DNA of 64,000 nt from Clostridioides phage LIBA2945. The notes under the pieces were generated by a model. That model did not search any database. It saw only the letters and a program-made list of their open reading frames with translations, and had not been told where the DNA came from. Below are positions 7,445 to 61,808 of the stretch, piece after piece. The translations under genes and the position numbers were made by a program. Each line of letters starts with the position of its first letter. Positions within the stretch are counted from its first letter, which is position 1. Where the stretch lies: the sequence record MF547663.1; one strand, given 5' to 3'.

Positions 7445-7468
7445 TTTGTATTTTATTTAGTTTATAAA
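7445..7468 (-). promoter_or_regulatory. conserved intergenic motif copy (coding-strand TTTATAAACTAAATAAAATACAAA) abutting the nrdD RBS
   Basis: one of at least 12 copies of the core AACTRAATAAAATAC placed upstream of genes. Confidence 0.45.
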
Positions 7469-7570
7469 AATTTTATAAATTTAATTAAGTTTAATATAAG
7501 TATAACACTCAACTAGATAAAATGCAATACTAGATTTTAAAAATTTTCATTTTAAAATCTAGTATTATCT

Positions 7571-8710
7571 CTATTGTTTTTGCTGCTGAATTGCAAATTG
7601 CTCTAAATATATATCTTTCAAGGTTCTTCTTGTACTTGTATTATTAATAATACTTAATCCAGAACTTGTTTCTCTCATAACTCTGCTCCAAATAGAACTG
7701 CCTTTATCCATATCTATATACTTAATACATTGCATCTTCTTTTTCCAATTTGAGTGTCTCCATAAATATAAATTATGCGCAAGACCTAGATATGCATAAA
7801 ACATGAAATTCTCACAAGTTAATGAGATTTCTTTAGACATTTTTCTTCCTTCATAAGACATCATCTCAGGATAAATTTTAACTAATTCTTCAAAAAACTC
7901 TTTTAAAAATTTAAAACATTCTTCTTCCATATTTTTGTCTTCGATATCACTAAAAGTATTTTTAAATGCTGTTACAAGTGTATTTAAAGTAACAATATTC
8001 ATCATATCATTTTTTGCAATAGATGTTTTAACCATATCTATTTTATTCTTTAATGCCCCTTTTTCATTTAATTTTATCATAATACGATTTACTGCATCCT
8101 GTTTATTAAAAGATTCAATTCTCGACTTAGAAAGAGTTTCGTGCAAGTTTAATTGCCAGAAATGTTCCATTGCAACTTCCATGTTATGACAAGTTATTAG
8201 AACAGGAAATTTAAGAGTTTTTAATATTTTTATTATTCTCTTTTCATCTTCTCCTCCTATTATTTTGGCATCCTGATATATATTATGTATTGCTTTTGTT
8301 CTATGTTGACCATCTTGCATACACATTAAACCTAGTATTATTGTTAGTTGCGAAGTATATTCATCATATATTACTTTTCCTTCTTTCCCATTTTCATCAA
8401 GTATATTTATTGTTAGTTGGTCTGGAAAATATTTTTCTTGTAATATCTTTTTTTGAATACTTTTGACTCTTGTTTTATTAAAAACTGCTTTATATTTAAA
8501 TGTTCCATCTGCTTGTTTTTTTGCTAATAGACCACGCTGTGTTGCAGGATAGTATATTATTTTTTGTTCATCCCATAATTTTGCTATTTCATATGCAGAA
8601 ATATTTATAGTCCACATTTTTTTATATAAGTGGTCTACTCCTTGAAATGTGTAGTTCTCAGTAAGTTTATGTTCATTAGGATTATATATATTATCAAATG
8701 TTATCGCCAA
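7571..8710 (-). CDS. DGQHR-domain (DndB-like) protein
   Basis: LMCMQDGQHRTKAIHNI carries the DGQHR signature; upstream YYPATQRGLL QR motif; TTG start. Confidence 0.65.
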   Translation of the reverse strand: MAITFDNIYNPNEHKLTENYTFQGVDHLYKKMWTINISAYEIAKLWDEQKIIYYPATQRGLLAKKQADGTFKYKAVFNKTRVKSIQKKILQEKYFPDQLTINILDENGKEGKVIYDEYTSQLTIILGLMCMQDGQHRTKAIHNIYQDAKIIGGEDEKRIIKILKTLKFPVLITCHNMEVAMEHFWQLNLHETLSKSRIESFNKQDAVNRIMIKLNEKGALKNKIDMVKTSIAKNDMMNIVTLNTLVTAFKNTFSDIEDKNMEEECFKFLKEFFEELVKIYPEMMSYEGRKMSKEISLTCENFMFYAYLGLAHNLYLWRHSNWKKKMQCIKYIDMDKGSSIWSRVMRETSSGLSIINNTSTRRTLKDIYLEQFAIQQQKQ

Positions 8711-8789
8711 TTAAATCTCTCCTTATTTTGTATTTTATTATATTATTATTATATACCATTTTCAACTGAATAAAAATAGACTTTAAACA

Positions 8790-8811
8790 ATTTATCTGTT
8801 TTTTATTTAGT
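8790..8811 (-). promoter_or_regulatory. conserved intergenic motif copy
   Basis: plus-strand tttttatttagtttataattt, i.e. ATTATAAACTAAATAAAAA on the coding strand. Confidence 0.4.
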
Positions 8812-8880
8812 TTATAATTTACTCTAACATCCTTATTTTATACATAATCCTAAGTTTTAAATCTTATTAAAATAGTGATT

Positions 8881-9183
8881 TTAATTACTTTTTTTCTTCT
8901 TAGATTCCTCCTCTGTCTTTTTCTTATTTTTTAAATTTCTTGCTTCCTCTTCTATTAATTCAATCATAGTATCAATAAAGGTTTTTACAAATATTTTTTT
9001 ATAATTTTTAAATTCTTTATCAGTCAAATCTAACTCTTGTTCATCTACGATATTTTGGAATCTATCATTCGCAAATTTTTCTAAATATTTTTTTGAATAT
9101 GTTATAGTAAAACATGCTTTGAATGATTTAGCATATTCTTTAGTCCAATCTTTTAAATTATTTAATTCTATTCTTAATCCCAT
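8881..9183 (-). CDS. hypothetical protein (Lys-rich C-terminus)
   Basis: co-oriented ORF. Confidence 0.3.
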   Translation of the reverse strand: MGLRIELNNLKDWTKEYAKSFKACFTITYSKKYLEKFANDRFQNIVDEQELDLTDKEFKNYKKIFVKTFIDTMIELIEEEARNLKNKKKTEEESKKKKSN

Positions 9184-9295
9184 TTGAATCCCCTTTTATT
9201 TATAAAAATTTAATTCCTCTATATTTATATATTTTATCTTTTTTAGATTTTATTTATTCTTTAAAATCACCACTAGAATTTTATTTATGGCATAT

Positions 9296-12200
9296 TTATT
9301 CAATTATCCAGTAAGAACTTACCCATATATCAATTCCCTCTACATCTACATAATCATCATTTATAAATCTCTTTTTTGATTCAGTTCTAGTTTTATTTAA
9401 ATATACTTTGTCAAACAATTTAATTGGATTGTTTTTAAATGTTTTTTTCTTTATCTTACATTCTTTTATTCTTCCAGAGCGTATATTATAAAATGTAATT
9501 TTAGGGGAGTACTTAGTATTAATATCTACAGCTATACAATGCCTTGGATTTTCATCAGATTTAATAATATTACAACTTCCTACATTTTCATAATGAGCTT
9601 TAATTAATTCTTCAATTGGAATATCTTTATTCTCAAAAACATCTTCCATGTATTCACACAATGCTAAAATATTTACATCCATGAACATTTTTTCAGTTTT
9701 TCTATTTGCGAATTTTTCTATATATTTCGCATAGATATTAGTTTTCTTTAATTGTTTTTTTTCATAAAAAGCACTAAATACTTGAACAATATTTAATAAT
9801 TTAGATGTCTTACCAAACTCTTCAAAAAAGTTTAACTTAATTAATATTTCTAATTGTCTACTATTGATATTTTTATTTAAATCAATTAACAATTTAGTAA
9901 AAGTATTATATTCATTATTTCTTAATGAATATAAATATTCAGCAACTTCAGTATTTAAATATTTAATACTTGATATACCTTTATATATAGTATTTGTTTT
10001 TTTGTCCATGAAATACTCTGCTCTTGAATATCTAAATTTACAATTTTTAACTTCTATCCCATATTCTTTTGCCAACTTTATTCCATTATTCAAATCTTCT
10101 TCATTATCTGCCCAATTTAAATATGATGTTGTAAATTCTAAAGGATAGTAGTATCTTAACATTCCACATATATAACCATTCATAGAGTATCCAGTTGAAT
10201 GGTTGTATCCAAATTGATATTCTGAAGAATCTGATATTATTTGTATAAATTCTTTCGCTTCTTTTTCAGCTATTTCTTTGGGTTTATTTGAGTGTTTACA
10301 ATAGCCATTTAAAATCTTTGGCAATTGTTTTTCTAATTCAACATCATCTTTTTTTCCTATTGCTCTTCTAGTTGTATCAGCTAAAGAGCCATCAAAATCA
10401 CATATGTCTGTTAAGAACTTTATTGTATCTTCTTGAAATACTAAAAACCCATTATTATCTTTTAATAATTCATCTATTTCTTCTGATGGATTTTTATTAA
10501 ATTCTCTATTTATTAATCTTTCTCTATATGATTTTCCACTAGGTCTTAAACTTGCATTTACTAAAGACATATCATTTACACATTTTGCTTTATATGTACT
10601 TAATAAATCAAAAGCGTAATCACCTTCAAATTGAAAAATTCCAACATTAATTCTATTTATATCTTCCCAAACATTTTTATCATTCCAATTTATTTCGTGA
10701 GCATACTTCCACTCTTTATTTATAAGTCTATACGTATCTTGAATTATACCTATAGTTTTTAATCCTAATATATCAAATTTCACATAATTCAATGAATCTA
10801 CTGCTTTCATCGTGCAAAATGATACTGGACTGTTTTCATTTCCATCTTTATAAAATACACCCAAATTATCATACAAAGTTATTGGGCTACCAATCATCCC
10901 TGCTGGATGTGTACCTTTAGAAGTTATTACTCCTCTAATCCCATCAAAATAATAAAACAAATCCTTATTATGTTCTCTTAACTCATCCCACATTTCTTTT
11001 AATTTAATTAATCTTTGTTTTTTCTTATTGTTTCTTATTGTATGCAAATATAATTCATGGTCTATAAAGTCTGGCGATTTACTTTCTTTGCCTTCTAGCT
11101 CTTCTATGTTTATTTCTTCTATAATTATCTTGGAATATTCTTTAAAGATATTATCAAATGTGTCTTTTATATTTTTAACCAAATTCAAATTATCATAATT
11201 TAATCCTTTAGCAAGTACATCTATACTGCCTCTATCCTTTATAGTTTGAAATGTTAGTATATATGATACTTTATCTTTTCCAAATCTATTAATTATATAT
11301 TCATAAACCTTTTGTCTATCTGATGGACTAAAATCTAAATCTATATCTCCAAGTGATATTCTATCAGCATTGCAGAACCTTGAAAATGCAGTTTTCCATC
11401 TAATAGCATCCACATCTGTTATTCCTGTTATGTATGCTATTAAAGAACCACCAACAGAACCTCTACATGGGCTAACATGAATATCATTATCTTTGCACCA
11501 ATTTACTAATTCAGCTACAAACAGCATGAAACTAGCCATGCCTTGATTACACATTATTTCATATTCTTCTTGTACTCTTAGTTTATATATATCTATTTTT
11601 TCTTTTTCAATAGCATTTACATTTATTAATTTTAAAAGTTTTTCATCTATGTAATCTTTCCATGTTTGATTGGCATTTTCCCCATATAAATTAGGATATT
11701 TAAAAGTTTTATCTAGTGTAAAATCTTCAACCATAGCAGCTAATTTATTTGTATTATTAATTGCTTCCAATATAATATCAATAGGTAGAATATTTTGTTT
11801 TTTAAACTCATCAACTAAATCATCATAATTTTTCCATGTTAAGTCAAATTCATCTTCTTCTCCATAGAAGCTATTTTTAGATTTTTGAAGCACTTTTCTA
11901 CATTCTGCTTTATATTCAGATGATGAATGAGTGTCTGTCCCTGCTATCAATGGTATTCCATATAAGATACTCCACTCATAGAGCATCTTATTATACTCTT
12001 TTTGACTATCGCAGTTGTGATATTGTATTTCTAAAAAACATCTATGATTATTTTTAGACATCCATTCTAGTAACTCTTGTCTTTTTTTAATATTATAATT
12101 ATATTTCTCAATACCCTCAATATCTATTATATTTGTATCACCTAGCTTCCATAATGGTGATGCTAGACAAGCAGAAGTTATTATTATATTATCGCTTGTA

Positions 12201-12628
12201 TTCATTAATTCATCAAATGATATTCTTGGATTGAAATAAAAATGACGGTCACTATTATCTTTTAAAATTCCTTTAGATGTAGCTTTTGACATTAGAGAAT
12301 TTAACTCTCTAACACCTTTTAAATTTTTTGCATATAAGCCAATATGCCAACCTCTATTATTATCTTCTAAATTTATGCATGTATATAGTTCTACACCATG
12401 AATATACTTTATTTCTGCGTTATCACACGCCTGTTTCTTTTTTACCCAGTCATAAATACCACCATGATTGCTAAATGCTATTGCTTTCATGTTATTTTCT
12501 TTTGCTAATGATATATATTCATCATATTTGCTACATGAGTCAGCAAAACCATTACAATTAGAAGTATCATCATGTAAGTGGTATACAACATAATTATTTG
12601 TTAATATTTCTTTTTGTATTTTATTCAT
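9296..12628 (-). CDS. dnaE: DNA polymerase III alpha subunit, DnaE-type (PHP domain plus polymerase core)
   Basis: N-terminal PHP segment VVYHLHDDTSNC..FSNHGG; polymerase motif SPCRGSVGGSLIAYITGITDVD; 1110 aa. Confidence 0.85.
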   Translation of the reverse strand: MNKIQKEILTNNYVVYHLHDDTSNCNGFADSCSKYDEYISLAKENNMKAIAFSNHGGIYDWVKKKQACDNAEIKYIHGVELYTCINLEDNNRGWHIGLYAKNLKGVRELNSLMSKATSKGILKDNSDRHFYFNPRISFDELMNTSDNIIITSACLASPLWKLGDTNIIDIEGIEKYNYNIKKRQELLEWMSKNNHRCFLEIQYHNCDSQKEYNKMLYEWSILYGIPLIAGTDTHSSSEYKAECRKVLQKSKNSFYGEEDEFDLTWKNYDDLVDEFKKQNILPIDIILEAINNTNKLAAMVEDFTLDKTFKYPNLYGENANQTWKDYIDEKLLKLINVNAIEKEKIDIYKLRVQEEYEIMCNQGMASFMLFVAELVNWCKDNDIHVSPCRGSVGGSLIAYITGITDVDAIRWKTAFSRFCNADRISLGDIDLDFSPSDRQKVYEYIINRFGKDKVSYILTFQTIKDRGSIDVLAKGLNYDNLNLVKNIKDTFDNIFKEYSKIIIEEINIEELEGKESKSPDFIDHELYLHTIRNNKKKQRLIKLKEMWDELREHNKDLFYYFDGIRGVITSKGTHPAGMIGSPITLYDNLGVFYKDGNENSPVSFCTMKAVDSLNYVKFDILGLKTIGIIQDTYRLINKEWKYAHEINWNDKNVWEDINRINVGIFQFEGDYAFDLLSTYKAKCVNDMSLVNASLRPSGKSYRERLINREFNKNPSEEIDELLKDNNGFLVFQEDTIKFLTDICDFDGSLADTTRRAIGKKDDVELEKQLPKILNGYCKHSNKPKEIAEKEAKEFIQIISDSSEYQFGYNHSTGYSMNGYICGMLRYYYPLEFTTSYLNWADNEEDLNNGIKLAKEYGIEVKNCKFRYSRAEYFMDKKTNTIYKGISSIKYLNTEVAEYLYSLRNNEYNTFTKLLIDLNKNINSRQLEILIKLNFFEEFGKTSKLLNIVQVFSAFYEKKQLKKTNIYAKYIEKFANRKTEKMFMDVNILALCEYMEDVFENKDIPIEELIKAHYENVGSCNIIKSDENPRHCIAVDINTKYSPKITFYNIRSGRIKECKIKKKTFKNNPIKLFDKVYLNKTRTESKKRFINDDYVDVEGIDIWVSSYWIIE

Positions 12629-14321
12629 TTACAACACTACTTTCAACATCTATTATATCTATATAAGAATATCCATTTTCATTGTTTTTAATAGAAAATA
12701 ATATATTCATTATTAAATCCTTAGATTTAAGATTATTATTATCTTCGTTAATCATTTTGCTAAAAAATTTTTTACTACAAAAATCTTTTTTAAATAAAAT
12801 TTTATCTTTCATAAAACTATAACTAGCATTCCCATATTTTTTTATATCCATTGTATTTATTCTTAAGTCTTTAATTATAAATTTAGGTCTTTCAATTGTC
12901 CCACACCAAATATCTTCTAATTCTCCTATACATATTAAATCATTTATGTTTATATTGCTGTCAAATACAAAATCTACTTCTACATTACTTGTTATTGTTA
13001 TATTTTTAAATTTATCATTTGTATATTTTATAAACTTACTTATATTTTCTTTGGGAAACTCATATCCAAAACTAGATTCATGTCCTTTACACCAATTGAA
13101 TAATTTGCTGTCTACACAAATAGATTTAAAATTATCTATATAATTAGGGCATCTTACTGAACCTGTATAATTATTTTTATTGTCAGATTCTCTTATCATA
13201 AGTATTGGCTTGTTGAATACATTCATAAATTTATTTGCTACCAATCCTGTTACTTTTGCATCTATACTATTTGAATCAATTAATACAACCTTATCATTCT
13301 CCACTGAAAATAGTTTTACATTTCCCTTTATTGCTTTATCAGTTATATCTTTTTGCTTTCTTTTATAGTTTTTACCTATCCTTATAATAGCATCTTGTAA
13401 TTTCTGTTTTTTAATTTCTCCTTTTGATTTATATGTAATTGTTTTTTCTTCACCTATAAAAGCTCTAAACAACAATTCTTTATCTTCTATTGTTCCATTT
13501 CTAATTATTGCATTTATTATGGGTGAAATACCCCAAACAACATTGTCTATCTTTAAATAATTTTTTATTTTTAAATCATGAACAAATGATAATATTAAGG
13601 GATTAGTTATATGGTTTACTTGCTTACCTATATTGAATATATATCTGTTTTCTAGTGACCTCATATCCATAGAATCACTTATATTTGCAACATTAGCCAA
13701 GTCAATATATTTATATCCTATATCTAAATTTACTTTATCTACTATGTATCTTATGAATTTATATGTAACCATCGCCCCACTACCATCTATATTTTCTACT
13801 TCTCCATTTTTATTATTAATTATTATGCTTGTATCTGGCACTTTAGTTAAATCATACATATGATGGTCTAATGCAATGAAATCTATTCCATTCCTATTCA
13901 ATTCTATTTGTTCTTTAAAATTTTCTGATGAGCTATCTGGAGTAATCAATAGTTTTGTGTTGTCTTCAATTACTTTATCCATAACCTCTTTTGTTAGTCC
14001 ATGAACTTTTGCCTTTTCAGTATGTTGTATATAATACACATTGTCATATTGTAAGTCAAATTTAATAAACATATATATTATTGAAGAACTACAATAACCA
14101 TCAACATCTGTATCCACTAGTATACCTATTTTATTATTATTTCTAATATTTTTTAATAAACAATTGTAGGCTCTATCAATATTGGTGTAATTATTATAAT
14201 CTTCCCAATTTAAAATATCTGCATTTAAAAGCCAATTTATTTTTTGATTATCAAGACCTCTATTTTTTAAAACAGTATTTAATACTGTATCTTCTATATG
14301 GTTTTTTAGTTCCCATTCCAA
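12621..14321 (-). CDS. DHH-family phosphoesterase, RecJ-like ssDNA exonuclease
   Basis: LVDTDVDGYCSS (DHH motif I) and ALDHHM (DHH motif III). Confidence 0.6.
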   Translation of the reverse strand: MEWELKNHIEDTVLNTVLKNRGLDNQKINWLLNADILNWEDYNNYTNIDRAYNCLLKNIRNNNKIGILVDTDVDGYCSSSIIYMFIKFDLQYDNVYYIQHTEKAKVHGLTKEVMDKVIEDNTKLLITPDSSSENFKEQIELNRNGIDFIALDHHMYDLTKVPDTSIIINNKNGEVENIDGSGAMVTYKFIRYIVDKVNLDIGYKYIDLANVANISDSMDMRSLENRYIFNIGKQVNHITNPLILSFVHDLKIKNYLKIDNVVWGISPIINAIIRNGTIEDKELLFRAFIGEEKTITYKSKGEIKKQKLQDAIIRIGKNYKRKQKDITDKAIKGNVKLFSVENDKVVLIDSNSIDAKVTGLVANKFMNVFNKPILMIRESDNKNNYTGSVRCPNYIDNFKSICVDSKLFNWCKGHESSFGYEFPKENISKFIKYTNDKFKNITITSNVEVDFVFDSNININDLICIGELEDIWCGTIERPKFIIKDLRINTMDIKKYGNASYSFMKDKILFKKDFCSKKFFSKMINEDNNNLKSKDLIMNILFSIKNNENGYSYIDIIDVESSVVNE

Positions 14322-17592: not shown

Positions 17593-17596
17593 TATT

Positions 17597-18172
17597 CTAT
17601 ATTCTTCCAGAACGCTTAGGTTGGGTACTTTGAATATCTTGAGATGTATTTTTTTTACTAGGAGGTTTAACTTGAGAATTGCCATCATCATCCTCGCAAA
17701 ATGATAATTGAAGTAGGCTGCCTAGTGCATAACGCTTACTATATGTTTCTGTTGCTCCATATCCTTGAATATCTAATTTACTCGGTTTTATAGGTACACT
17801 ATCAGACTCCATAAACTGACCGCTAGAATGCCATAATACAGTTTTAATTGATACTGAATTGTTTCCACCAGAAATGGGAAATTGAGTTATACATAAATCA
17901 AATTTTGCTAATATTGGTCTTATTGTTGTTAGAATATCATCTAAATTTGCATATTTGCTATTATAAAATGGATTATTAGAACTCTTTTCAATACTTTCTA
18001 CCTCTTTTTGAAAATCAACTAAACTTACTAATAAATCTTTTATATTTTCACTTCTGCGAAATGGTATTAATGAATCTTTATTCTCATTTTCTTTTAAATC
18101 TCCAACCATTTTTCTTATTACATCTTTTAATTGTTTTACTTCGCTCTCTATGTTAGCTATTTGTTCTTCCAT
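17597..18172 (-). CDS. erf: ERF-family single-strand annealing protein
   Basis: FYNSKYANLDDILTTIRPIL and GYGATETYSKRYALGSLL parallel P22 Erf (FGKYKYRSCEDILEGVKPLL and GATSSYARKYCLNGLF). Confidence 0.7.
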   Translation of the reverse strand: MEEQIANIESEVKQLKDVIRKMVGDLKENENKDSLIPFRRSENIKDLLVSLVDFQKEVESIEKSSNNPFYNSKYANLDDILTTIRPILAKFDLCITQFPISGGNNSVSIKTVLWHSSGQFMESDSVPIKPSKLDIQGYGATETYSKRYALGSLLQLSFCEDDDGNSQVKPPSKKNTSQDIQSTQPKRSGRI

Positions 18173-18183
18173 AAAACCCTCCT

Positions 18184-18210
18184 TTTAATTTTATTCAGTT
18201 TATAAATATT
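18184..18210 (-). promoter_or_regulatory. conserved intergenic motif copy abutting the erf RBS
   Basis: coding strand TTTATAAACTGAATAAAATTAAAAGGAGG. Confidence 0.45.
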
Positions 18211-18212: not shown

Positions 18213-19058
18213 TTAAAATGGTAAATCTGATTCTTCAATATTTATGTTATTTTTTTGTGCATCTTTTTCTTTCATGGCATTTTCTTTTTCTTCCATTTTA
18301 TCTATCATGGCTACTATATTATCCTTATAGAATGGATTAGGCTTCCCATCTTCACCAAAATCATTTTCTTTTGATATCTTATTTCCTGAACCTCCAGTTA
18401 TTCTAAGATATTTTATTATTTTATCTTTTTTCCCTGTACCAAATCCACCAGTTCCTTCTATTATCTCAGTTACTATATCTCCTTCTAATTGTGGTACATC
18501 TCCCACTTTATATAGCTTTTCAAATTCTTTTATTACTTCTGTATTATCAATTACAAGTCTAACTCTAAATCCATTATCATTGTATTTATTCATTATTCCT
18601 ATTACTTCTAATCCCTCTTCTATTTTTATTATTTCCTCCAAGTATACATATGCTCTCCATAATATACCTGCCTTTATAGGTAGTTTTGCATCTTTTTGTC
18701 TGTTACAAAATTTACCTTGTATTCTAAATCCTTCATGTTTTTCTCCATCACTATAATATGTATTGTCATCTAATTGACAGGTGCATCTAACTATTTCTCC
18801 TCTACCCTCTTCTGCTCTAGTTACAATATCATTCACAACTGTTTCTAATCCCTGTGATATCTTATTAACTCCTCCAGCAGATGTGTATATGCTTCCATAA
18901 TAATCAACTATTTCATTCTTATCTTGTGATATAGCAACATTAAGTTTAAACTTTATTGCTTCTTGTGGAGTTCCTTCTTTTACTCTTTCTGCTGCTAATA
19001 TATCTAACACTTCCCCACTAACAAAAACTTCATTGTAATTTACATTTTTTTTCGCCAT
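18213..19058 (-). CDS. ssb: SSB-like single-stranded DNA-binding protein
   Basis: C-terminal acidic tip EESDLPF (compare SSB DDDIPF/DDLPF); sits directly downstream of erf; the N-terminal domain is divergent. Confidence 0.5.
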   Translation of the reverse strand: MAKKNVNYNEVFVSGEVLDILAAERVKEGTPQEAIKFKLNVAISQDKNEIVDYYGSIYTSAGGVNKISQGLETVVNDIVTRAEEGRGEIVRCTCQLDDNTYYSDGEKHEGFRIQGKFCNRQKDAKLPIKAGILWRAYVYLEEIIKIEEGLEVIGIMNKYNDNGFRVRLVIDNTEVIKEFEKLYKVGDVPQLEGDIVTEIIEGTGGFGTGKKDKIIKYLRITGGSGNKISKENDFGEDGKPNPFYKDNIVAMIDKMEEKENAMKEKDAQKNNINIEESDLPF

Positions 19059-19070: not shown

Positions 19071-19100
19071 CTTTTATTTTGTATTTTATTCAGTTGTAAT
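19071..19100 (-). promoter_or_regulatory. conserved intergenic motif copy abutting the ssb RBS
   Basis: coding strand TTACAACTGAATAAAATACAAAATAAAAGAGGAG. Confidence 0.45.
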
Positions 19101-20639: not shown

Positions 20640-21065
20640 TTATTTATTATTTATTTCATCTAATACTAAATTTACTTGTTTCTTTGCTTTTTTAACTTCA
20701 ATTCTTGCCAGACATAACTTAATACCTTTATTTAAATTAAATTCATCTGTATCATGGCAAGTAGAGGATGCTTTAAAATTTCCTTTTCTAACTTCTACTT
20801 TTTTCCCATTTGTTCTATATAGATATGCTCCAGAGAAATCTCCTCTTATAGACCATGCACCCCATTCATATTTTTTCTTTTGTTGAACAATTTCAAAATA
20901 TGCTTCAAATTCACTATAGTTCATAAAACCTATTCCATAATCTGTTTTAAAATGTATAGCTCCATTATTTCCCACAGATGTAATAATAAATATATCTCCT
21001 ATTTTTAACATCTCAAAACCTTGTATTTCTTTCATTAATCTTATTTTAGTTCCTTCTATTAACAT
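20640..21065 (-). CDS. hypothetical protein
   Basis: co-oriented packed ORF. Confidence 0.3.
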   Translation of the reverse strand: MLIEGTKIRLMKEIQGFEMLKIGDIFIITSVGNNGAIHFKTDYGIGFMNYSEFEAYFEIVQQKKKYEWGAWSIRGDFSGAYLYRTNGKKVEVRKGNFKASSTCHDTDEFNLNKGIKLCLARIEVKKAKKQVNLVLDEINNK

Positions 21066-22180
21066 ATTTTCTTCATCCTTTCTATTCTATTATTATATTT
21101 ATCAATTGCTTCTTGCTCTCTTTCATTGACATCTCTATTATATTTACCTTTAGCTTGGACTATTTTGCCATTTCTAACTTCAATTGTTACTAAACTTTTA
21201 CTTGGATTATCCTTTTTTCTCATAAATAATATATGACATTTTCCATCTATAACATTTTGAATATAACTACTTACACAATTATTTTGTTGTACTGCTTCAT
21301 CTTTAATTTCATTTGTATTTTTAGGGTATATAAATTTATAATCTTGATATGAATATTCTAGTGACTTGTCTATTCTTTTATTAAATACTTCTTCTTCAAA
21401 TTGAGTTTTAAGACGATTATAATTTCGAGATGCTATTTTATGAGTTGTTAAGAAATGTCTTGGATATTTTTCATATTTATCACTTATTACACTCATCATA
21501 ACAACATAGTCATATAATTCGTTTAGAGTGCTTTCAAGCCCATTTAATGCTTCATATGTCATCAGATTATCTATATAATTTATAAGTGATTGAGGTTTAT
21601 ATTTATATATGTCTATTAATCTATCAAATATCATTCTATCATAACCAGAATCAAGAATTGAAATTAAATTAGTTTTTCTTATTGAATTCAATTCTAAGCT
21701 TAATAAATTATTATATAAATTTGGGTTTTTACTATACCCTTGTATCAATCGGTCACTCAAAGTAATACTATGATTCCTACAGATAGAAATAAGACCTTTA
21801 GGTATACTCTTAATATCACAATGTATCGGATAAATTATTTTTTTTAATCCTGCTGAGAATAATTGTTCATACTCAGAATAATTATTTATTTCATTTAAAA
21901 AACTTCCTATATTTCTTATTCTTTCAACTCTCCTTCCCCAAGTTCTGCTACTCTTACTTCTATTTACTCTTCCGTCTACAAAATTTAAAAAACACTTATA
22001 ATTTTCATCTTCAAAAGAATTTATTACCTCATGTAAATCATATCCTCTAAGCTGAGTGCATACATCTTTTACAATCCTTCCAGATTTACCAATACATTCT
22101 CCTGTTGCTAAATTATATTTTACATTCTTCCCATCTTCAAATTCAAATACTAAAAACTGTTTTTCTTTATAAGATTTCAA
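21059..22180 (-). CDS. PcfJ-like protein
   Basis: C-terminal AVQQNNCVSSYIQNVIDGKCHILFMRKKDNPSKSLVTIEVRNGKIVQAKGKYNRD follows the PcfJ-like domain pattern. Confidence 0.5.
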   Translation of the reverse strand: MKSYKEKQFLVFEFEDGKNVKYNLATGECIGKSGRIVKDVCTQLRGYDLHEVINSFEDENYKCFLNFVDGRVNRSKSSRTWGRRVERIRNIGSFLNEINNYSEYEQLFSAGLKKIIYPIHCDIKSIPKGLISICRNHSITLSDRLIQGYSKNPNLYNNLLSLELNSIRKTNLISILDSGYDRMIFDRLIDIYKYKPQSLINYIDNLMTYEALNGLESTLNELYDYVVMMSVISDKYEKYPRHFLTTHKIASRNYNRLKTQFEEEVFNKRIDKSLEYSYQDYKFIYPKNTNEIKDEAVQQNNCVSSYIQNVIDGKCHILFMRKKDNPSKSLVTIEVRNGKIVQAKGKYNRDVNEREQEAIDKYNNRIERMKKIC

Positions 22181-22258: not shown

Positions 22259-22567
22259 TTAGATTTTTTTAGAATTTATATATTTTTCTTTTAAACCTTT
22301 ATTACCTCTTGTTTCCATAATTTTATTTATAGATTTTATATAGTTTATATCATTAGAAATTCTCTTAAGACTTGTTATAAAGTAGACAGAATAGCTTCTT
22401 GGTATCTTCTTTTTGATAGCTAAATCAATTACTGTTCTAGCAGCATTGTAACTTTTTAAATGAGTATGCCCTTCTTCAAATTTTTTATTTGTATTATAAA
22501 CAATATATCCAGTTTTACATTTGATAATAATATATTCTTTTTTCTCATATATTTTATTTGTATCCAT
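22259..22567 (-). CDS. hypothetical protein
   Basis: co-oriented packed ORF. Confidence 0.3.
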   Translation of the reverse strand: MDTNKIYEKKEYIIIKCKTGYIVYNTNKKFEEGHTHLKSYNAARTVIDLAIKKKIPRSYSVYFITSLKRISNDINYIKSINKIMETRGNKGLKEKYINSKKI

Positions 22568-35977: not shown

Positions 35978-36580
35978 TTAATTCATACATTCTAACATTT
36001 CTTTTCTATATATACTGCTATAAACTATTTTCTTTGCTATTATCTCCATTTCTGATTTAGCTTGTTTTTCTTTATAAGAAAATGTATTAATATACTCACT
36101 AAGTACTTTTAAACTTTCATTCATAGTATCTAAAGTCTCTTTTAGTGTTTCTATTTCAGATGTCAATCCTTCTCTTTCAGCTAATAATTTGTCCTTTTCA
36201 GATGATATTTCATCCATTATATTAATATATTCTTTTTCGGTTTTGTCTAACTTTTTCAATAAATTTTCAATTATCATTAAGTCAGTTTCTCTATCAATTC
36301 CATATTCAACTCTATACAATGTTATTATTTTTGTATCTCTCAAATCTGTTATTAGTATGATATTGTCAACTAGCCTAAAATTTGTTTCAGTATATTTATC
36401 ATTAAATCTTCCTGTGTAAATCAATCTACTTTGTTCAAACATCTTATTTAAATCTTTTTGATATTGGTCTTTGTTTAAATTTAGATTCTGCTCTACACAA
36501 TTTTTCTCACACTCTTTAATTCTCTCTATATATCTTCTTAGTGCATGGTTAGTTACATTTATCATTTTATCTTCTCCCAA
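35978..36580 (-). CDS. hypothetical coiled-coil protein
   Basis: co-oriented ORF. Confidence 0.3.
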   Translation of the reverse strand: MGEDKMINVTNHALRRYIERIKECEKNCVEQNLNLNKDQYQKDLNKMFEQSRLIYTGRFNDKYTETNFRLVDNIILITDLRDTKIITLYRVEYGIDRETDLMIIENLLKKLDKTEKEYINIMDEISSEKDKLLAEREGLTSEIETLKETLDTMNESLKVLSEYINTFSYKEKQAKSEMEIIAKKIVYSSIYRKEMLECMN

Positions 36581-36762
36581 TCTACAAATTTATGAATATT
36601 AAAATTTAAATCTATATAATATAAATCATATTGTTCAATATTTTTATTTTTAAGTGTTAACGAAGCTCTCAAGCCTCCTAATGTCTTGAAACCAATTCTA
36701 TTACCATTACCTATATAAAAATCTTCCATATCTTTATTTTTCGCAAAATAAATCCTATTCAT
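36562..36762 (-). CDS. hypothetical protein
   Basis: co-oriented ORF with motif copy and RBS upstream. Confidence 0.3.
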   Translation of the reverse strand: MNRIYFAKNKDMEDFYIGNGNRIGFKTLGGLRASLTLKNKNIEQYDLYYIDLNFNIHKFVDWEKIK

Positions 36763-36780
36763 ACATTTATACCTCTATTA

Positions 36781-36806
36781 TTTTGTATTTTATTTAGTTT
36801 ATATCT
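36781..36806 (-). promoter_or_regulatory. conserved intergenic motif copy (a second copy at 36879..36905)
   Basis: coding strand ATATAAACTAAATAAAATACAAAATAAT; tandem second copy AATTATAAACTAAATAAAATACAAAA. Confidence 0.45.
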
Positions 36807-36948
36807 TTAACATATTGTATTTAGTTCCTCTTCCTTATTTATAATAATAACATAACTTTTCATTTATTTCAATAGTTATTTTGTATTTTATTTAGTTTAT
36901 AATTTTATTATTTATATTCGCATGATTAAATACTTTGTGTATATCTTT

Positions 36949-41279: not shown

Positions 41280-41575
41280 ATGTACCTCCCTATAATTTTT
41301 CTAACATCTTACAATTTTTCTTATTACATTTACCTCCACAACCACATTTTTCAATATTTCTAAACCAGCCTTTGTGTATTTTTCTTTCAGCACAAAGCTT
41401 TTTTATTAAGTTAAACTGATATTCTTCCACTTTTCACTCTCCACACATTATGTTTTGCATTTTATTTATTTGTTAGTTTTATTGAAAATATAAATTTACA
41501 ATATATTCTATCAGCTATTCTAAGATTTAATAGTGACTTAGAATAGCTTAGTTTCTCTATAATAAATAATTTTAA

Positions 41576-41914
41576 TCATTGCATTCTTCTAACTAAATAA
41601 TCCATAGTTCTTCTAAATCCATTCTCTGCCTTTAATATATAGACTTCTTTAAAATCGTTTTCTATATTTTCATATCCATTTAATTTATTTATGTACTTAA
41701 TTATTATATCAAATGAAACTATTTCAAAAAACAATATATTTTCTATGACATATTGAATTTTTTCTAAATCCTTTTCTTCTATGTACTTTATAAGTTTTTT
41801 AATTTTAATTGGCAAATCAGCATCATCTTTTGTTATTTTAATCATTTCAACACGCTGCTCATTCTTCTCCAATGAATTTCCCTGAAATTTATTTGTCGCT
41901 TTTATTATACTCAT
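41576..41914 (-). CDS. hypothetical protein
   Basis: co-oriented ORF. Confidence 0.3.
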   Translation of the reverse strand: MSIIKATNKFQGNSLEKNEQRVEMIKITKDDADLPIKIKKLIKYIEEKDLEKIQYVIENILFFEIVSFDIIIKYINKLNGYENIENDFKEVYILKAENGFRRTMDYLVRRMQ

Positions 41915-42074
41915 CTGCTTCTCCTCTCTAACCCATTATATTTATATTATATCATATCGAACAACCGTTCTGTATATTTTTTCTAAAATTATTTTTATTT
42001 TTTTGGTTTTTGATTTTATAGATTTGTTGAATCTTTTTATAAATGCACTAACATGCACATTTATAAAAAGATTT

Positions 42075-42968
42075 TTATTCTCGATTAGTCTTTAAATTAT
42101 GATACCTCTGATGATATGCTTTATAGATATTATTTGCATCACCTTTCAAGCATTTTAACTCTAAATATTTTTTTATTTCAGGAATAGACCAAGATACACA
42201 CTCATAAGCTTCTTGTTCATACATATCGTATATTATCCCTGATTTTTGTAAAGTCTTACCAGTCAGATGTATGTCTAAATCTGAAAATGCTACTGATAAA
42301 GTTTTTAACCTATTTTGTATTCCATTCTTACTAATAGCCTTCATACCATTATCAGTTAATTTGGTAGGTCTAGTTTTTATTATATATTCACAATCCATGT
42401 TAAATTTATATTCTGTTTCTTTACTACTTCCCTTTATTTCGCTTTTAGTATAATAATCTTCTACAATAACATCTTCTAATATTTCCTTCATATAATCATC
42501 ACAAATAAATCTTCTGTCTGGAAGGTCTATATATGAATAATCTTTTGCTATATCTGACACTTTCAAATATCTTAATTCTATATAATCTTTTCCCATGATA
42601 CCTTCAAAGAGAGCATATACTATAAATTTATCTTGAGCATTTAAAAATGCACTACATATATTTTTTATTTGGTTTCTTGTAAAATATTTATTGGCATTAA
42701 ATTTTATCATATCTGTGTATTTGTTAGTATCTATACTAATATTACAATTATTTTCTTTTAATATCTCTCTTAAAATTCTTAAATTAGTATATACAGTTGT
42801 AGTAGATTCTCCTATTAATCTTCCTTTTATAAAACTATCTATATTTTGTTCATTTAAATTACTTATTTTATCTATTTTAGCTTTAGTTATAAACTCTTCT
42901 AAGTATCCATTTATTCTGTTACGTCTTACTTCTTCCTCTCTTATTGTACTTTCTAATTTATTAACCAT
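42075..42968 (-). CDS. hypothetical protein
   Basis: co-oriented ORF directly downstream of the recombinase gene; no catalytic motif seen. Confidence 0.3.
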   Translation of the reverse strand: MVNKLESTIREEEVRRNRINGYLEEFITKAKIDKISNLNEQNIDSFIKGRLIGESTTTVYTNLRILREILKENNCNISIDTNKYTDMIKFNANKYFTRNQIKNICSAFLNAQDKFIVYALFEGIMGKDYIELRYLKVSDIAKDYSYIDLPDRRFICDDYMKEILEDVIVEDYYTKSEIKGSSKETEYKFNMDCEYIIKTRPTKLTDNGMKAISKNGIQNRLKTLSVAFSDLDIHLTGKTLQKSGIIYDMYEQEAYECVSWSIPEIKKYLELKCLKGDANNIYKAYHQRYHNLKTNRE

Positions 42969-43079
42969 TTTTTAATTCACTCCCTTTTTAAGCATATATA
43001 ATAAATTATAGTACAACATAATCTATAAGTACATATTATTATGTTTTATTTAGCTTAATTGTTCTATAATTTTTTAATA

Positions 43080-44048
43080 TTAATTAACATCTCCCACTTT
43101 TAATAATTTATATATTGGATTATTTTCAGTCATTTTTTTTGTATTACTCTCTTTGTCTTGATGCATATAATATTTATACATTGTCTGTATACTTTTATTA
43201 CCTGTAAACTTTCCTATTTCTTCCAATTTTGTTCCTGTTTCAGACATTAATGAAACAAAACTATGTTTAAAACTATGCGGTGTTACATGAGGCAATCCAG
43301 CTAACTTCAATGCTTTTTTTACAAGTCTTTCTATTGACCTTGTTGTTAATCTTTCATTATTTTTAGATAAGAACAAAGCATTTGTGCTATCTTTATTATC
43401 TTTTTTACCTTCGATTTGGTTTCTAAAGTATAAAAAATCTCTATACATTTTTAATACTTGTTCATTTAAACCTACATTTCTTTTTAATTTTCTTTTCCCT
43501 ATCACTTCAAAATCTCCATTCGAGAAATTTATGTCTTTTATATTCATTTTTTCTATTTCATGTATTCTCATACCAGTAAAAATAAGTATGTTTATAATCA
43601 AATTATCTCTGCAAGTATTATAGTTTTTATTATCAACATATAATTTATTCATAGTTTCTAATAATTTAATAATTTCATCTTTAGTTAATATCTTTTTCTC
43701 AAATTGAACTTTATCTTGTAATTTTTTAACGTAGCTAACGGGATTATCTTTAATTTTACCTTTAGCTCTAAGAAAGCCACAATAAGCTTTAAATGATGCT
43801 CTTTTTCTGTTTATTGTAGCTGCTTTCATTCCTTTTTCTTTTAATAAGATAAGCCATTTTTCTTGTATATCTGTAAAAAGTATTTTATCAAGTTCTTCCA
43901 TTGTACAATTTTCTTTTTTAAATAAATACCTTATGCCTTCTTTTACATCAGCTCTATATGCTTTTATTGTTTTCTCATCTCTATCATTATATAACTTTAA
44001 ATTTAATAAAAATTCTTCTAGAGCTTCTATTCCAGTCATATGTATCAC
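43080..44048 (-). CDS. int: tyrosine site-specific recombinase (integrase or dimer resolvase)
   Basis: HVTPHSFKHSFVS (HxxRH-like box II) and MYKYYMHQ catalytic-Tyr region; N-terminal SAM-like domain; TTGACA promoter with motif copies at 44079..44140. Confidence 0.75.
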   Translation of the reverse strand: MIHMTGIEALEEFLLNLKLYNDRDEKTIKAYRADVKEGIRYLFKKENCTMEELDKILFTDIQEKWLILLKEKGMKAATINRKRASFKAYCGFLRAKGKIKDNPVSYVKKLQDKVQFEKKILTKDEIIKLLETMNKLYVDNKNYNTCRDNLIINILIFTGMRIHEIEKMNIKDINFSNGDFEVIGKRKLKRNVGLNEQVLKMYRDFLYFRNQIEGKKDNKDSTNALFLSKNNERLTTRSIERLVKKALKLAGLPHVTPHSFKHSFVSLMSETGTKLEEIGKFTGNKSIQTMYKYYMHQDKESNTKKMTENNPIYKLLKVGDVN

Positions 44049-44205
44049 ATCCTTTTTATTTTATATTTATATCATATACCTATTTTATTTAGTTGTCAAT
44101 ATTTTTAAGTAATTTTATATTTTATTTAGTTTAATTAATCTTATCAAAATATAAAAATTTTTTTGATAAGATATTAAATTAAAAACTACGATTTTATTGT
44201 CATTT

Positions 44206-54771: not shown

Positions 54772-54992
54772 GTTATTACCTCCTTATTTATTAGCTTGTT
54801 CCAATAATTCTAATTGATTGCTGTTTCCATATTTTGAAATAATACTTTCTGTAGTACTCCAATAGCTACTATCTAAATCCTTTTTAAACAATGATTTTAT
54901 CTTAATTATTAATTTTTTCATGATTTATTCCCCTTTCAATTTTTTTATTGGAAGTGGCGTTTTTAAAGAACGCCCTAAAACTTTTTATTTAG

Positions 54993-56732: not shown

Positions 56733-57050
56733 ATGATTAGTGATAGATTAAGAGAACTAAGAAAAGAAAAAGGCTACACAATTAAAGAGTTAGCACAAAT
56801 TATAAATGTTTCAGATATTTCAATCAGTAGATATGAAAACAACAAAAGGGATGCAGATATAAAAACATTGAAAGAGTTAGCAAAATTATATGATGTATCA
56901 TTAGACTATATAACTTGTCTTACAGATAATAGAGAAAATATACAACTTGAAGAAGAAGAAGTCAAACTATTAGATAATTATAGAGAGTTAGACACTAAAA
57001 GTAAAACAATAGTACAAGAACAAATAAATACATTAAAAAAACTACTGTAA
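56733..57050 (+). CDS. XRE/Cro-CI-family HTH repressor
   Basis: ISDRLRELRKEKGYTIKELAQIINVSDISISRYENNKR helix-turn-helix; AGAGGTG SD. Confidence 0.65.
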   Translation: MISDRLRELRKEKGYTIKELAQIINVSDISISRYENNKRDADIKTLKELAKLYDVSLDYITCLTDNRENIQLEEEEVKLLDNYRELDTKSKTIVQEQINTLKKLL

Positions 57051-57316: not shown

Positions 57317-57694
57317 TTATTGTAATTTTATTTTTATTTCTTCTAATTGTTCCATATTTCTAGCGACTTGGTCGGTTGCTCCATTTAGCTTTCTATTAAT
57401 CTTAATTACTCTAGTTTCTATTGCATTTAACTTAATGTCAACCACATCAAAGTTATCTTTAATAGAAGTCATTTCCTCTGCTGTTGAAATAGATTGATTA
57501 TATAGTATATCTTGTTTCTTTTCAATACTGTCAAGCCTATTTTCTATACTATCAAATCGCTTGTCCATGTTATCAAGTCTGTTGTTAGTTTCAACCTGTC
57601 CAATTTTTAAATCATTGATGTCCTGTTTCATTTCAGTAATATTACTATCCATTTTCTGTAATAATTCTAGTATCTTTTCATCCATCACGACCAC
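57317..57694 (-). CDS. coiled-coil protein, paralog B
   Basis: MDEKILELLQKMDSNITEMKQDI; heptad repeats; DQVARNMEQ. Confidence 0.4.
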   Translation of the reverse strand: MVVMDEKILELLQKMDSNITEMKQDINDLKIGQVETNNRLDNMDKRFDSIENRLDSIEKKQDILYNQSISTAEEMTSIKDNFDVVDIKLNAIETRVIKINRKLNGATDQVARNMEQLEEIKIKLQ

Positions 57695-58230
57695 GCTCCT
57701 TTTATTATTATAACATAATAGTTAATGTTATATACAGCTAATTGTCGTATTCTAATCAACTTGTGTCATTATAAGTTTTCATTTGTCACACTTCCTTTTG
57801 ATTTTATTTAATTGATGATTTAATAATACATTACTTTCCAATTTTTGTCAATACGTTCTATTATATTTATATATTTTATTTAGTTATTGTCCTTGTAAAA
57901 ATATTGCTTATCATATTGATATCACTAGCTTATGAGTACATAATTGTGTGAATTATTTTTTATATCTACTATAGTATGCGAATTTGATTAATGATTAAGA
58001 AATGTAGTGATTATGTGATAGATGCTAATAATGTAATGATAATATTAAGCTAATAATGTAAGAGTTCTATTTCTATAAACTTTTTTATTTAATAATGAAC
58101 ACAAAAAAAATAATAACTCATGCTATCATCTTTAAAATAACATAAATTATTATTTCTAATAAAAAGTAAGATTTAGTACCTTTTTATTCGTTTTTAACAA
58201 AGTAATTTCTTTTCTTAACATACATTAATA

Positions 58231-58260: not shown

Positions 58261-58939
58261 TGACCTTAAAAATAGAAGAAAGGGGGCTATTTTTAGACTT
58301 TAGTATCAAATGATATTCATTATCATTTTGTAGTCCTTTTTCTTCTACATCCCAAATTCCATTCAGCCCTTAAAATAAACATTTATACAAAATTACACCA
58401 CTAATTCAAATTTTTAAACATACACTCATGAACAATTTCAAACCGTCTCCGAGTATTATAAAACAGTGTTAATTCAATACTTATTTTTCATTAATCATGA
58501 TAAAAAAATAGCCCCATCTATGTTTTGAACCTATGTTATAAGGCTAAAGCATGAACAGGGGGTGTATGTTTTATTTTAATTTATATGAACTATATAAAAT
58601 ATATATTATATCCTATAAATCAACTATAATTGTTATAAAATAATTTTAAATAGTGTATGTTTTAAATTTGAACATCTCAAAATCCTATAGACAAAATTTT
58701 AATTCTATCAAGTTATCATTTTTTACTTAAAATTCAATACAATTCAAACAAAATATACTTCATGCAATTTATTCAAGATTAAAACATATAAATATGCCTA
58801 TTTTATAGAAAAATATATAGTAATTTATATAATTTTTCATATCAATTTTCGTAGACACTATACTCCAGAAAATCAATCTAAAATGATAAATTTTATAAAA
58901 CAATTTTCAAATTTAAGTAGTGTATGTATGGTTTTTATA

Positions 58940-61107: not shown

Positions 61108-61116
61108 AAGTTACTC

Positions 61117-61356
61117 CTAGTACAATTTGTATTCATATACAAATATTCCATTTTCAAATTTTTTATTAACTTCAAGATAGCCCTTGTCTTTCAATTCGTT
61201 CCATGCCATTCTAAACGAATATGCTCCCAAATCTAAATAGTCCATCAAAAATTGTTTAGAGAAGTAAGGTTCGTTTTTAAATGCTGAGATAGTTCCATAA
61301 AGACCTTTAGCTTTTAAGCTAATACTTTTACTTTTGAATATATCTTCTTTTACCAT
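61117..61356 (-). CDS. RepA_N-like winged-helix protein (short paralog)
   Basis: SLKAKGLYGTISAF..AYSFRMAWNELKDKGYLEV. Confidence 0.45.
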   Translation of the reverse strand: MVKEDIFKSKSISLKAKGLYGTISAFKNEPYFSKQFLMDYLDLGAYSFRMAWNELKDKGYLEVNKKFENGIFVYEYKLY

Positions 61357-61489
61357 AGTCTAATTTTTACACCCTCCTATTTTTTTTATTTTAAACTTAT
61401 TATAATTTATAATTCCCATTTTTTCAAGGTAATTTTTCCCTTTACATAAACAAATAAATACAAAAACAAATATATTAAAAACTGTTTAT

Positions 61490-61640
61490 ATTAATATACC
61501 ATCTCATGGTACGCCCATAGCATGGGATATCGAAAAATTCGATGTACCACGAGATGGTACATCGAAAGAATCGCTATATTTCAACGTTTTTTCGATTTTT
61601 GCCTCGATATACCACGAGATGGTACATCGAAAAATTAAAG
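61490..61640. repeat. ori-like cluster of GC-richer inverted and direct repeats
   Basis: TACCATCTCATGGTA (61497..61511); CCCATagcATGGG (61513..61525); two copies of TTCGATgTACC-ACGAGAT-GGTACATCGAA (61538..61566 and 61604..61634); ATCGA pentamer recurs. Confidence 0.55.
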
Positions 61641-61710
61641 TATCTGAAACAATTTAAAAATTATATAGTTATGCACAGATAAAAATACAAATTGTTAATA
61701 AAATTGCAAC

Positions 61711-61752
61711 TTATCAACATGTTATCAACAACTTACTAACAGCTTATCAACA
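61711..61752 (+). promoter_or_regulatory. four 11-bp-spaced DnaA-box-like 9-mers (TTATCAACA x3, TTACTAACA x1)
   Basis: copies at 61711, 61722, 61733 and 61744; one mismatch from the DnaA-box consensus TTATCCACA. Confidence 0.5.
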
Positions 61753-61760
61753 GGGAATAA

Positions 61761-61808
61761 AACTGAATAAAATACTAAATTGACAAAAATAATATAAAAT
61801 GTTAATAT
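61761..61808 (+). promoter_or_regulatory. sigma-A-type promoter (TTGACA, 17 nt spacer, TAATAT) preceded by a conserved-motif copy AACTGAATAAAATAC
   Basis: TTGACA at 61780..61785, 17-nt spacer, TAATAT at 61803..61808; motif at 61761..61775. Confidence 0.5.

Follow-up and report, generated by a model that had tools for sequence, protein, structure and literature searches.

A repeated, gene-parallel box in Clostridioides phage LIBA2945 as the probable operator of an integrase-fold lysogeny repressor

In the Bacillus phage SPbeta, MrpR (YopR/SroF), which has the fold of a tyrosine recombinase but no recombinase activity, uses the element SPBRE as its operator; this was established by chromatin affinity purification sequencing (ChAP-seq) with ten peaks, by electrophoretic mobility shift assays (EMSA) and by lacZ fusions (PMC10516654). 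The structure of the SroF-DNA complex of phage phi3T (9rd5) shows a monomer reading 24/26 bp of an asymmetric box with two A-tracts, AAAAATAAAA (bioRxiv 10.1101/2025.11.27.690993). As studied so far in these two phages, the repressor of this system acts as a monomer, its asymmetric operator is dispersed and its antirepressor is under SOS control. The subject of this report is a recurrent box in 64 kb of the genome of Clostridioides phage LIBA2945 (64,000 nt of record MF547663.1, analysed as a whole and called the window here), which probably is the operator of a repressor of the same family. Large plasmid-phages of the phiCD211/LIBA6276 type are common in Clostridioides difficile, and to our knowledge nothing is known of how their lysogeny is maintained. 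No paper linking the MrpR/SroF family to C. difficile phages was found in the library searched.

The box is a genuine regulatory motif, restricted to one phage lineage. With up to two mismatches allowed, AACTRAATAAAATAC was matched 21 times in the window against 4.2 matches expected; the highest count among 100 shuffles was 9 and none reached 21. A weight matrix of 25 nt, refined on the sites and used with a cut-off of 18 bits for strong sites, located 15 strong copies of TTATAAACTRAATAAAATAYAAAA, where 200 first-order Markov simulations gave an expectation of 0.065. The strong sites scored 20–29 bits and the background stayed under 14 bits. The consensus is TTATAAACT(A/G)AATAAAATA(C/T)AAAA, with AACTRAATAAAAT as the near-invariant part and AACT/AATAAAAT as the core; conservation is highest in AAATAAAA, which contains two A-tracts. 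The recurrent motif claimed in the original prediction, which was made from the letters of the window, was thus borne out by both counts. When k-mers were counted with mismatches tolerated, the same motif was the top intergenic family of the window. This counting replaced a home-made expectation-maximisation motif finder, which had converged solely on the ribosome-binding site when run on intergenic DNA.

Fourteen of the 15 strong boxes are intergenic in a window of which 14.5% is non-coding (binomial p = 2e-11). The remaining one, at 22326-22350, falls in a coding sequence (CDS) by the annotation of LIBA6276, and a crude gene call makes all 15 non-coding. Each of the 15 runs parallel to the local genes, as had been predicted for the gene downstream, and the spread over coding regions or random orientations expected of a chance motif was not seen. 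All positions listed in the prediction hold a copy, three of them degenerate (8726-8745, 43041-43055 and 54980-54994). The list had omitted the strong boxes at 22326, 57794, 58583, 61864 and 63718 and the weak inverted copy at 8759-8783 on the plus strand (Table 1).

Table 1. Strong, weak and degenerate boxes of the window and the genes and sites associated with them.
Feature	Position	Strand	Description
Box	7443..7467	-	29.2 bits; adjoins ribosome-binding site of nrdD (5206..7431); LIBA6276/phiCD211 homology breakpoint
Degenerate copy	8726-8745	-	3' half only, AATAAAATACAAAA
Weak inverted copy	8759..8783	+	10.8 bits; overlaps -35 of DGQHR promoter
Box	8793..8817	-	32 nt (box end to -35 start) upstream of -35 of TTGAAA-N17-TATAAT; DGQHR gene 7571..8710
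Box	18181..18205	-	Adjoins ribosome-binding site of erf (17597..18172)
Box	19076..19100	-	In 5' leader of gene 18213..19058; starts 29 nt past -10 of TTGAAA-N17-TATTAT; runs into ribosome-binding site
Box, variant AACTATATAAAAT	22326..22350	-	Within 3' end of CDS 22259..22567; 145 nt upstream of PcfJ-like gene 21059..22180
Box, downstream one of pair	36780..36804	-	Adjoins ribosome-binding site of gene 36562..36762
Box, upstream one of pair	36878..36902	-	98 bp from partner; sigma-A-type TTGAAA-N17-TATTAT between both boxes
Weaker box AAATAAATAAAATGC	41457..41471	-	At matching position in ES-S-0107-01, L138 and L139
112-aa gene	41576..41914	-	One open reading frame downstream of repressor gene, behind SOS box; candidate Sar-like antirepressor
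LexA-type SOS box GAACGGTTGTTC	41959..41970		Abuts extended -10 (TGATATAAT)
MrpR/SroF(YopR)-family integrase-fold protein, 297 aa	42075..42968	-	Predicted master repressor; 'hypothetical' in LIBA6276
Degenerate box AGCTAAATAAAACAT	43041..43055	-	Between int and mrpR-like gene; 3' half resembles variant box of 45%-identity lineage
XerC-like tyrosine recombinase 'int', 322 aa	43080..44048	-	Directly upstream of repressor gene; Arg-II to Lys, His-II to Asn
Box	44075..44099	-	In spacer of TTGACA(44099..44094)-N17-TATGAT(44076..44071), promoter of int-mrpR-like operon; predicted autoregulatory operator
Box, second at int promoter	44112..44136	-	37 bp upstream of box 44075..44099
Degenerate box AACTAAATAAAAAGT	54980-54994	-	Site of the original prediction, checked
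Box	57794..57818	-	Starts 9 nt past -10 of TTGACA-N17-TATTAT; runs into ribosome-binding site of gene 57317..57694
Box	57866..57890	-	15-nt core starts 34 nt before -35 of promoter at 57794; pair 72 bp apart
Box, variant AACTATATAAAAT	58583..58607	+	In long non-coding stretch; no gene close downstream
Box	61756..61780	+	Ends 4 nt before -35 of TTGACA-N17-TAATAT, promoter of 396-aa helix-turn-helix operon
Box	61864..61888	+	In leader, 60 nt downstream of -10 of 396-aa operon promoter; pair 108 bp apart
GerE/LuxR helix-turn-helix and Zn-ribbon protein, 396 aa	62110..63300	+	phrog_5767 'sigma factor'; predicted box target, rival binder; in yonO/yonP place of SPbeta order
Box	63718..63742	+	Directly after HU-like gene 63385..63717, before hairpin and tRNA-like fragment; no open reading frame follows

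Four placements of the box were distinguished: inside a sigma-A spacer, a few nucleotides before a -35, just past a -10 or in the leader, and against a ribosome-binding site. Copies that run into the ribosome-binding site, the int copy between -35 and -10 and the plus-strand copy at 61761 lying 5' of a promoter had all been described in the prediction and were found as stated, the first in five instances. The box at 57794..57818 overlaps the expected transcription start because it begins so close to the -10. No obvious promoter was seen at the boxes of nrdD, erf and 36780, which abut the ribosome-binding site. Pairs of boxes in the same direction bracket four promoters at distances of 37–108 bp (44112/44075, 57866/57794, 36878/36780 and 61756/61864), and the sole inverted pair is formed by 8793-8817 with the weak copy 8759-8783, the box centres being 34 bp apart. 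Scans for sigma-70 and terminator consensus sequences gave chance-level counts in this DNA of 25% GC, so the sigma-70 scans were restricted to the strongest hexamer pairs.

SPBRE, re-derived from the SPbeta genome as aaatACAAAAAATATGTATATAA, is likewise always parallel to its gene. At yorE and yonP it occupies a sigma-A spacer (TAGACA-N17-TATAAT), at aimR and yonX it precedes the -35 by 7–8 nt, and at yopM and yopV it abuts the ribosome-binding site. SPbeta thereby shows three of the four window placements; the layout past the -10 or in the leader is not among them. The likeness extends to a dispersed, asymmetric, A/T-rich element of about 10–15 intergenic copies before early genes, to a box at the repressor operon's own promoter, to an integrase-fold repressor encoded behind a YopP-type recombinase gene, and to the overall SPbeta-like architecture of the phage.

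The variable position of the box speaks against a promoter element of fixed geometry as well as against a signal that acts on translation only. The latter would be an mRNA leader element 5' of the ribosome-binding site, for instance one that enhances translation, serves an RNA-binding protein as its operator or marks a site of processing, and an A/U-rich sequence in strictly sense orientation, with five or six copies running into the ribosome-binding site, would suit it. This reading is contradicted by the several copies upstream of a -35 or in a spacer, as these lie outside the transcript of the adjacent promoter. One copy moreover precedes no open reading frame, a scan of the window with Rfam returned no family (nor did a tRNA scan return a tRNA), and in SPbeta these layouts are those of a DNA operator, so that we hold an mRNA element to be highly improbable.

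The distribution of the box was compared among related phages. The window belongs to the group of the large (~131 kb) C. difficile plasmid-phages phiCD211/phiCDIF1296T; its genes are encoded by the minus strand as far as ~56 kb, beyond which the plus strand predominates. The nearest record is LIBA6276, with an identity of 99.9% over 7429-20655 and of 99.4% over 20635-44210; the segments 211-7453 and 44206-53839 are 97–99.6% identical to phiCD211 instead. LIBA6276-like and phiCD211-like segments thus lie side by side and the genome is therefore a mosaic. LIBA6276 carries 16 sites genome-wide and none in its structural modules. With one exception, which precedes an antirepressor gene, they are found in the leftward early arm or near the gene of the 396-aa regulator. 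In ES-S-0107-01, whose DNA is ~85–90% identical, 14 sites stand at matching positions with the core intact and neighbouring bases changed; the variant box at 22326..22350 is kept in both relatives. In phiCD211 no exact core and no score above 12.3 bits was found, though many genes are shared at 95–99% identity, and the phiCD211-like segments of the window (97–99.6%) hold no boxes. This pattern indicates that the motif belongs to one type of immunity or regulation and not to the host or to the whole phage group.

A k-mer search for a counterpart in phiCD211 yielded nothing comparable to the box: apart from sigma-A promoters with an extended -10, a loose TTAAAAT-N5-ATTTTAA was all that emerged. 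This inverted repeat stands before the ribosome-binding sites of many early genes of phiCD211 (68280, 80293, 87218, 104062 and 125475, in minus-strand sense), and its conservation is far below that of the window motif. Scans of a collection of viral contigs with the short patterns AACTRAATAAAATAC and TATAAAATTAATAAAAT gave nearly exclusively single, chance-like matches in unrelated contigs and were uninformative.

The candidate repressor gene, to which the original prediction makes no reference, was reached through its neighbour. Contigs with orthologues of the XerC-like 'int' were fetched, and the next gene downstream, coding for 297 aa, carries the Pfam domain MrpR_C_cat (PF22823), which was matched in 12 of 12 database homologues. 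By BLASTP the protein is 26% identical to SPbeta YopR over 167 aa (E = 3e-5). When the PDB was searched with a profile built from 11 homologues, phi3T SroF (9rd5) was retrieved at 9e-10, YopR at 8e-6 and MrpR (8a0a) at 1e-5, and all other entries scored above 0.6. An AlphaFold2 model (predicted local distance difference test, pLDDT, of 79) gave YopR, MrpR and SroF as the top seven Foldseek matches in the PDB (E ~1e-7), with ordinary recombinases (integron integrase, Cre) at 3e-3 and worse. According to the sequence alignment of the 11 homologues, (near-)invariant arginines are confined to the N-terminal domain (R15 and R18), and the catalytic-type domain has none. Lysines and the C-terminal tyrosines Y285 and Y289 are conserved, as in MrpR.

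The operon of int and the mrpR-like gene parallels yopP-yopQ-yopR of SPbeta, and the spacer of its own promoter holds a box. Where the repressor is at least 86% identical, the box pair is present at the operon promoter in 11 of 11 genomes or loci (the window, LIBA6276, ES-S-0107-01, L138, L139 and six IMG/VR contigs). Phages of the phiCD211 type have only a 32%-identical homologue (PHICD211_20140) and no AACTRAATAAAAT box. Four loci with repressors of 45–47% identity contain a related but distinct box, AACCGATAAAACATAAT: one copy directly follows the repressor gene's -10 and two stand ahead of the next gene, where one of the two adjoins the ribosome-binding site. These loci are smaller contigs (3.7–31.5 kb), and no XerC-like gene stands beside the repressor gene in the stretches read. 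A box that changes together with the repressor across lineages is the pattern expected of repressor-operator pairs. On this co-occurrence and co-variation, and on the analogy with SPbeta and phi3T, rests our proposal that the phage's master lysogeny repressor (42075..42968) has the motif as its operator box and that the box is the functional counterpart of SPBRE. We consider this likely, and predict that the protein binds the box. Of the two natures offered in the original prediction, the binding site of a phage transcription factor is therefore well supported by comparative evidence, and the promoter element is kept only as a rival, discussed below.

A number of observations weigh against the proposed operator. 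The most serious comes from locus L133, where a variant box, TATAAAATTAATAAAAT, agrees with the window consensus at 17 of 19 positions and surrounds a 40%-identical 396-aa gene; no MrpR-like gene occurs within the 21 kb fetched, and this variant together with another one in L134 is the main weakness of the proposal. Copies in one direction only, and copies abutting ribosome-binding sites, are not predicted by simple operator logic. Co-occurrence in the C. difficile lineage fails to single out the repressor, since two other genes, the XerC-like one and the ~80%-identical version of the 396-aa gene, follow the box there just as perfectly. No repeated box was found when one was searched for the distant MrpR-like gene of phiCD211. 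At the level of the protein, the identity to MrpR/SroF is only 17–26%, and an older local copy of Pfam did not detect the MrpR domain in the 297-aa protein.

The 396-aa protein is also the centre of the chief rival explanation, in which the box would be a phage-specific promoter of the middle type, used by the host RNA polymerase together with this protein and with TAAAAT as -10. Phage sigma-factor promoters such as the late promoters of T4 gp55 (TATAAATA) and the middle promoters of SPO1 gp28 are short A/T-rich repeats that precede many genes in parallel. The window motif resembles them in being a repeated, A/T-rich, gene-parallel consensus in a phage that encodes an annotated sigma factor: the 396-aa protein matches phrog_5767 over its full length and has a helix-turn-helix of the sigma-4/LuxR type. 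All copies are 5' of a gene and parallel to it, TAAAAT occurs in the box at a -10-compatible distance (17–18 bp) from a weak -35 at three sites, the window version of the protein (~80% identity) co-occurs with the box, and variant boxes surround its homologues in L133 and L134. The box differs from the T4 and SPO1 promoters in its variable position relative to ribosome-binding sites and sigma-A hexamers, with one copy within a strong sigma-A spacer, and in showing no co-variation with the putative sigma factor, whose recognition helices do not track the box variants. One copy follows a gene with no open reading frame downstream. There is no fixed distance to the start codon, the weight-matrix hits ending 8–175 nt before the next open reading frame on the same strand (647 nt at 58583), and TAAAAT as -10 would let the transcripts at nrdD, erf and 57794 start in or at the ribosome-binding site.

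Structural matches were obtained for the helix-turn-helix domain only, and no sigma-2 domain was seen, in what is a poor model (pLDDT 66). Homologues of the protein occur in phiCD211, L131 and L132 without any such motif. Small phage contigs have MrpR-like genes flanked by the box family, and the 4–14 kb fetched of them contain no such helix-turn-helix gene. Taken with the variable position, these points make the promoter reading unlikely. In a hybrid view, the operator box may additionally contribute a -10-like TAAAAT at some sites; this could explain why all copies run parallel to their genes.

Both binders named in the original prediction, the 396-aa protein and the XRE paralogs, are probably not the binder. 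Many related phages have homologues of the former with the motif absent from the neighbourhoods fetched, and the XRE gene at 56733..57050 lies in a segment that is 88% identical at the nucleotide level in phiCD211, which has no such motif.

In L133 (5035-19480) and L134 (498-4645), the copies of the 396-aa gene are 40% and 67% identical and have their own boxes, TATAAAATTAATAAAAT and ATATAAAATATATAATTAA, in layouts like those of the window, against ribosome-binding sites or 8 nt before a TTGACA. A 344-aa hypothetical protein of pBS32, a prophage-like plasmid of Bacillus subtilis, is similar to residues 7-96 of the 396-aa protein (37% identity; L130, 3980-5014). Homologues are numerous, and the Pfam families of their neighbourhoods are named after SPbeta genes and keep the SPbeta order (YonV, the helix-turn-helix gene, HU/YonN, YonK, YonJ, YonG, terminase, YonD, YonB). 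The clostridial phages are therefore SPbeta-like in layout.

The XerC-like 'int' shows its best SPbeta likeness to YopP (E = 8e-7); direct similarity to MrpR was looked for and not found. The replacements of Arg-II by Lys and of His-II by Asn are invariant among the orthologues and shared with YopP, on account of which the protein may be catalytically impaired or a regulatory partner. With its gene directly behind paired boxes and in perfect co-occurrence with them in C. difficile phages, the recombinase could itself be the user of the boxes, as a regulator or as an enzyme of cassette exchange, and the altered catalytic residues shared with YopP have been counted in favour of this. So has the nrdD box, where the homology of the window to both LIBA6276 and phiCD211 breaks exactly. 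The exchange modules bordered by pdif sites resemble this arrangement in their short repeated sites at gene-module borders on a plasmid-like replicon with a Xer-type recombinase, one swap of the nrdD/nrdA type ending at a box. The window box differs from pdif in having neither dyad symmetry nor a central spacer. Its core AACTRAATAAAAT is asymmetric, without the inverted arms around a 6–8 bp crossover known from dif, lox, att and attC, and the breakpoints mostly lie elsewhere, only one or two of several dozen falling at a box. Around the MrpR-like genes of the 45%-identity lineage, boxes occur without any XerC-like neighbour in the stretches read, and in SPbeta it is YopR, not YopP, that binds the operator. 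Recombinase sites are thus a distinctly unlikely explanation.

A mark of mosaic boundaries in general was rejected as a role of the motif, since of the dozens of breakpoints just two meet a box, the one at nrdD and, loosely, the one at 44.2 kb. At the former, between 7429 and 7467, the homology to LIBA6276 (99.9%) starts and that to phiCD211 (97%) stops exactly at the box and ribosome-binding site of nrdD. In place of the nrdD/nrdG of the window, LIBA6276 carries a gene annotated as ribonucleotide-diphosphate reductase (nrdA-type), so a module swap ends at the box. Boxes of dual purpose, serving as repressor operators and as sites of the YopP/XerC-like recombinase or as homology linkers by which co-resident plasmid-phages exchange early-gene cassettes, would join lysogeny control to modular genome shuffling; we find this very unlikely.

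For the favoured operator, the following mechanism is proposed by analogy with SPbeta and phi3T. The repressor would be a member of the MrpR/SroF (YopR) family with an integrase fold and without catalytic activity. As long as the phage persists as a plasmid-prophage, single molecules would wrap an asymmetric box of ~23–25 bp with two A-tracts at some 15 sites. At the sigma-A spacer of the repressor operon this would result in autoregulation. Other boxes would be occupied over or just past the transcription start, or in pairs flanking the promoters of early operons at 37–108 bp, and still others in leaders or intergenic positions directly before ribosome-binding sites. Jointly, the genes for replication, recombination and nucleotide metabolism and the operon of the 396-aa protein would be silenced. 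The role assigned in the original prediction, the coordination of replication, recombination and integration genes, would accordingly be modified: early lytic genes would probably be repressed for the sake of lysogeny and not positively coordinated.

Induction would proceed through an SOS-controlled gene located one open reading frame downstream of the repressor gene, with a LexA box in its promoter and a product that is perhaps a Sar-like antirepressor. Behind a hairpin that follows the repressor gene, AGAACGGTTGTTCG is fused to the extended -10 TGATATAAT, and the 112-aa gene follows. The GAAC/GTTC arms of this SOS box are kept in LIBA6276, ES-S-0107-01, L138 and L139, with a variable centre. 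No sequence similarity of the 112-aa protein to YopT or Sar was detectable, so its possible role as a Sar-like antirepressor is derived from its context.

In comparison with phi3T, whose SroF is the best profile match of the window protein, the boxes of both phages are asymmetric, ~25 bp long and contain two consecutive A-tracts (AAAAATAAAATTAC in the reverse complement of phi3T, AAATAAAATAC in the window). A LexA-controlled gene, sar, stands one open reading frame downstream of the repressor gene (sroF) in phi3T and SPbeta, in the position that the 112-aa gene with its putative LexA box has in the window. The flanking positions of the box differ, as does the candidate antirepressor, which at 112 aa shows the lack of similarity to Sar/YopT given above. 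The differences from SPbeta are greater. The box sequences are unrelated (ACAAAAAATATGTATATAA against AACTRAATAAAATAC in the window), the repressor has 325 aa there and 297 aa here at 17–26% identity, and no yopQ-like gene separates the recombinase and repressor genes of the window. The window phage infects a clostridium, its prophage is maintained as an extrachromosomal plasmid, and its operator is predicted from sequence.

The prediction amounts to a regulon of ~15 operators and three named genes (42075..42968, 43080..44048 and 41576..41914). If true, the integrase-fold repressor system reaches beyond the SPbeta-like phages of Bacillus into clostridial plasmid-prophages, and sister phages with genes of 95–99% identity would differ wholly in the motif because they carry different immunity modules. 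It would be of use for superinfection immunity, for induction studies and for the engineering of C. difficile phages.

Several minor features were observed in the same DNA. Four-codon mini-ORFs (MKNI*, MLKI*) with strong ribosome-binding sites occur at ~61850-61866 and 36800-36816, and both end exactly where the downstream box of a pair begins. At 47362-47582 there is an array with a 68-nt period and 3.3 copies, the counterpart of which in phiCD211 is annotated as a repeat region of the CRISPR type (clustered regularly interspaced short palindromic repeats); a phage-borne mini-CRISPR array is already annotated for the phiCD211-type group. Directly upstream of the box at 61756-61780, in 61491-61632 and 61707-61761, three palindromes TCGATnTACCACGAGATGGTACATCGA and four repeats CAACTTATCAA phased at 11 nt were found, and the equivalent of the region 61491-61761 in phiCD211 has two GGCACAGAAATGTGACC repeats instead. 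The TCGATnTACCACGAGATGGTACATCGA and CAACTTATCAA repeats are candidates for partition or origin sites, or for sites of a second regulator. After the box at 63718-63742, around ~63745-63815, a hairpin (GATAAGTC...GACTTATC) precedes a stretch that looks like a tRNA 3' half (GGTTCGATTCC T-arm and acceptor), in which ARAGORN called no tRNA. The corresponding region of phiCD211 contains a tRNA-Ser, and the same arrangement follows a variant box in locus L134.

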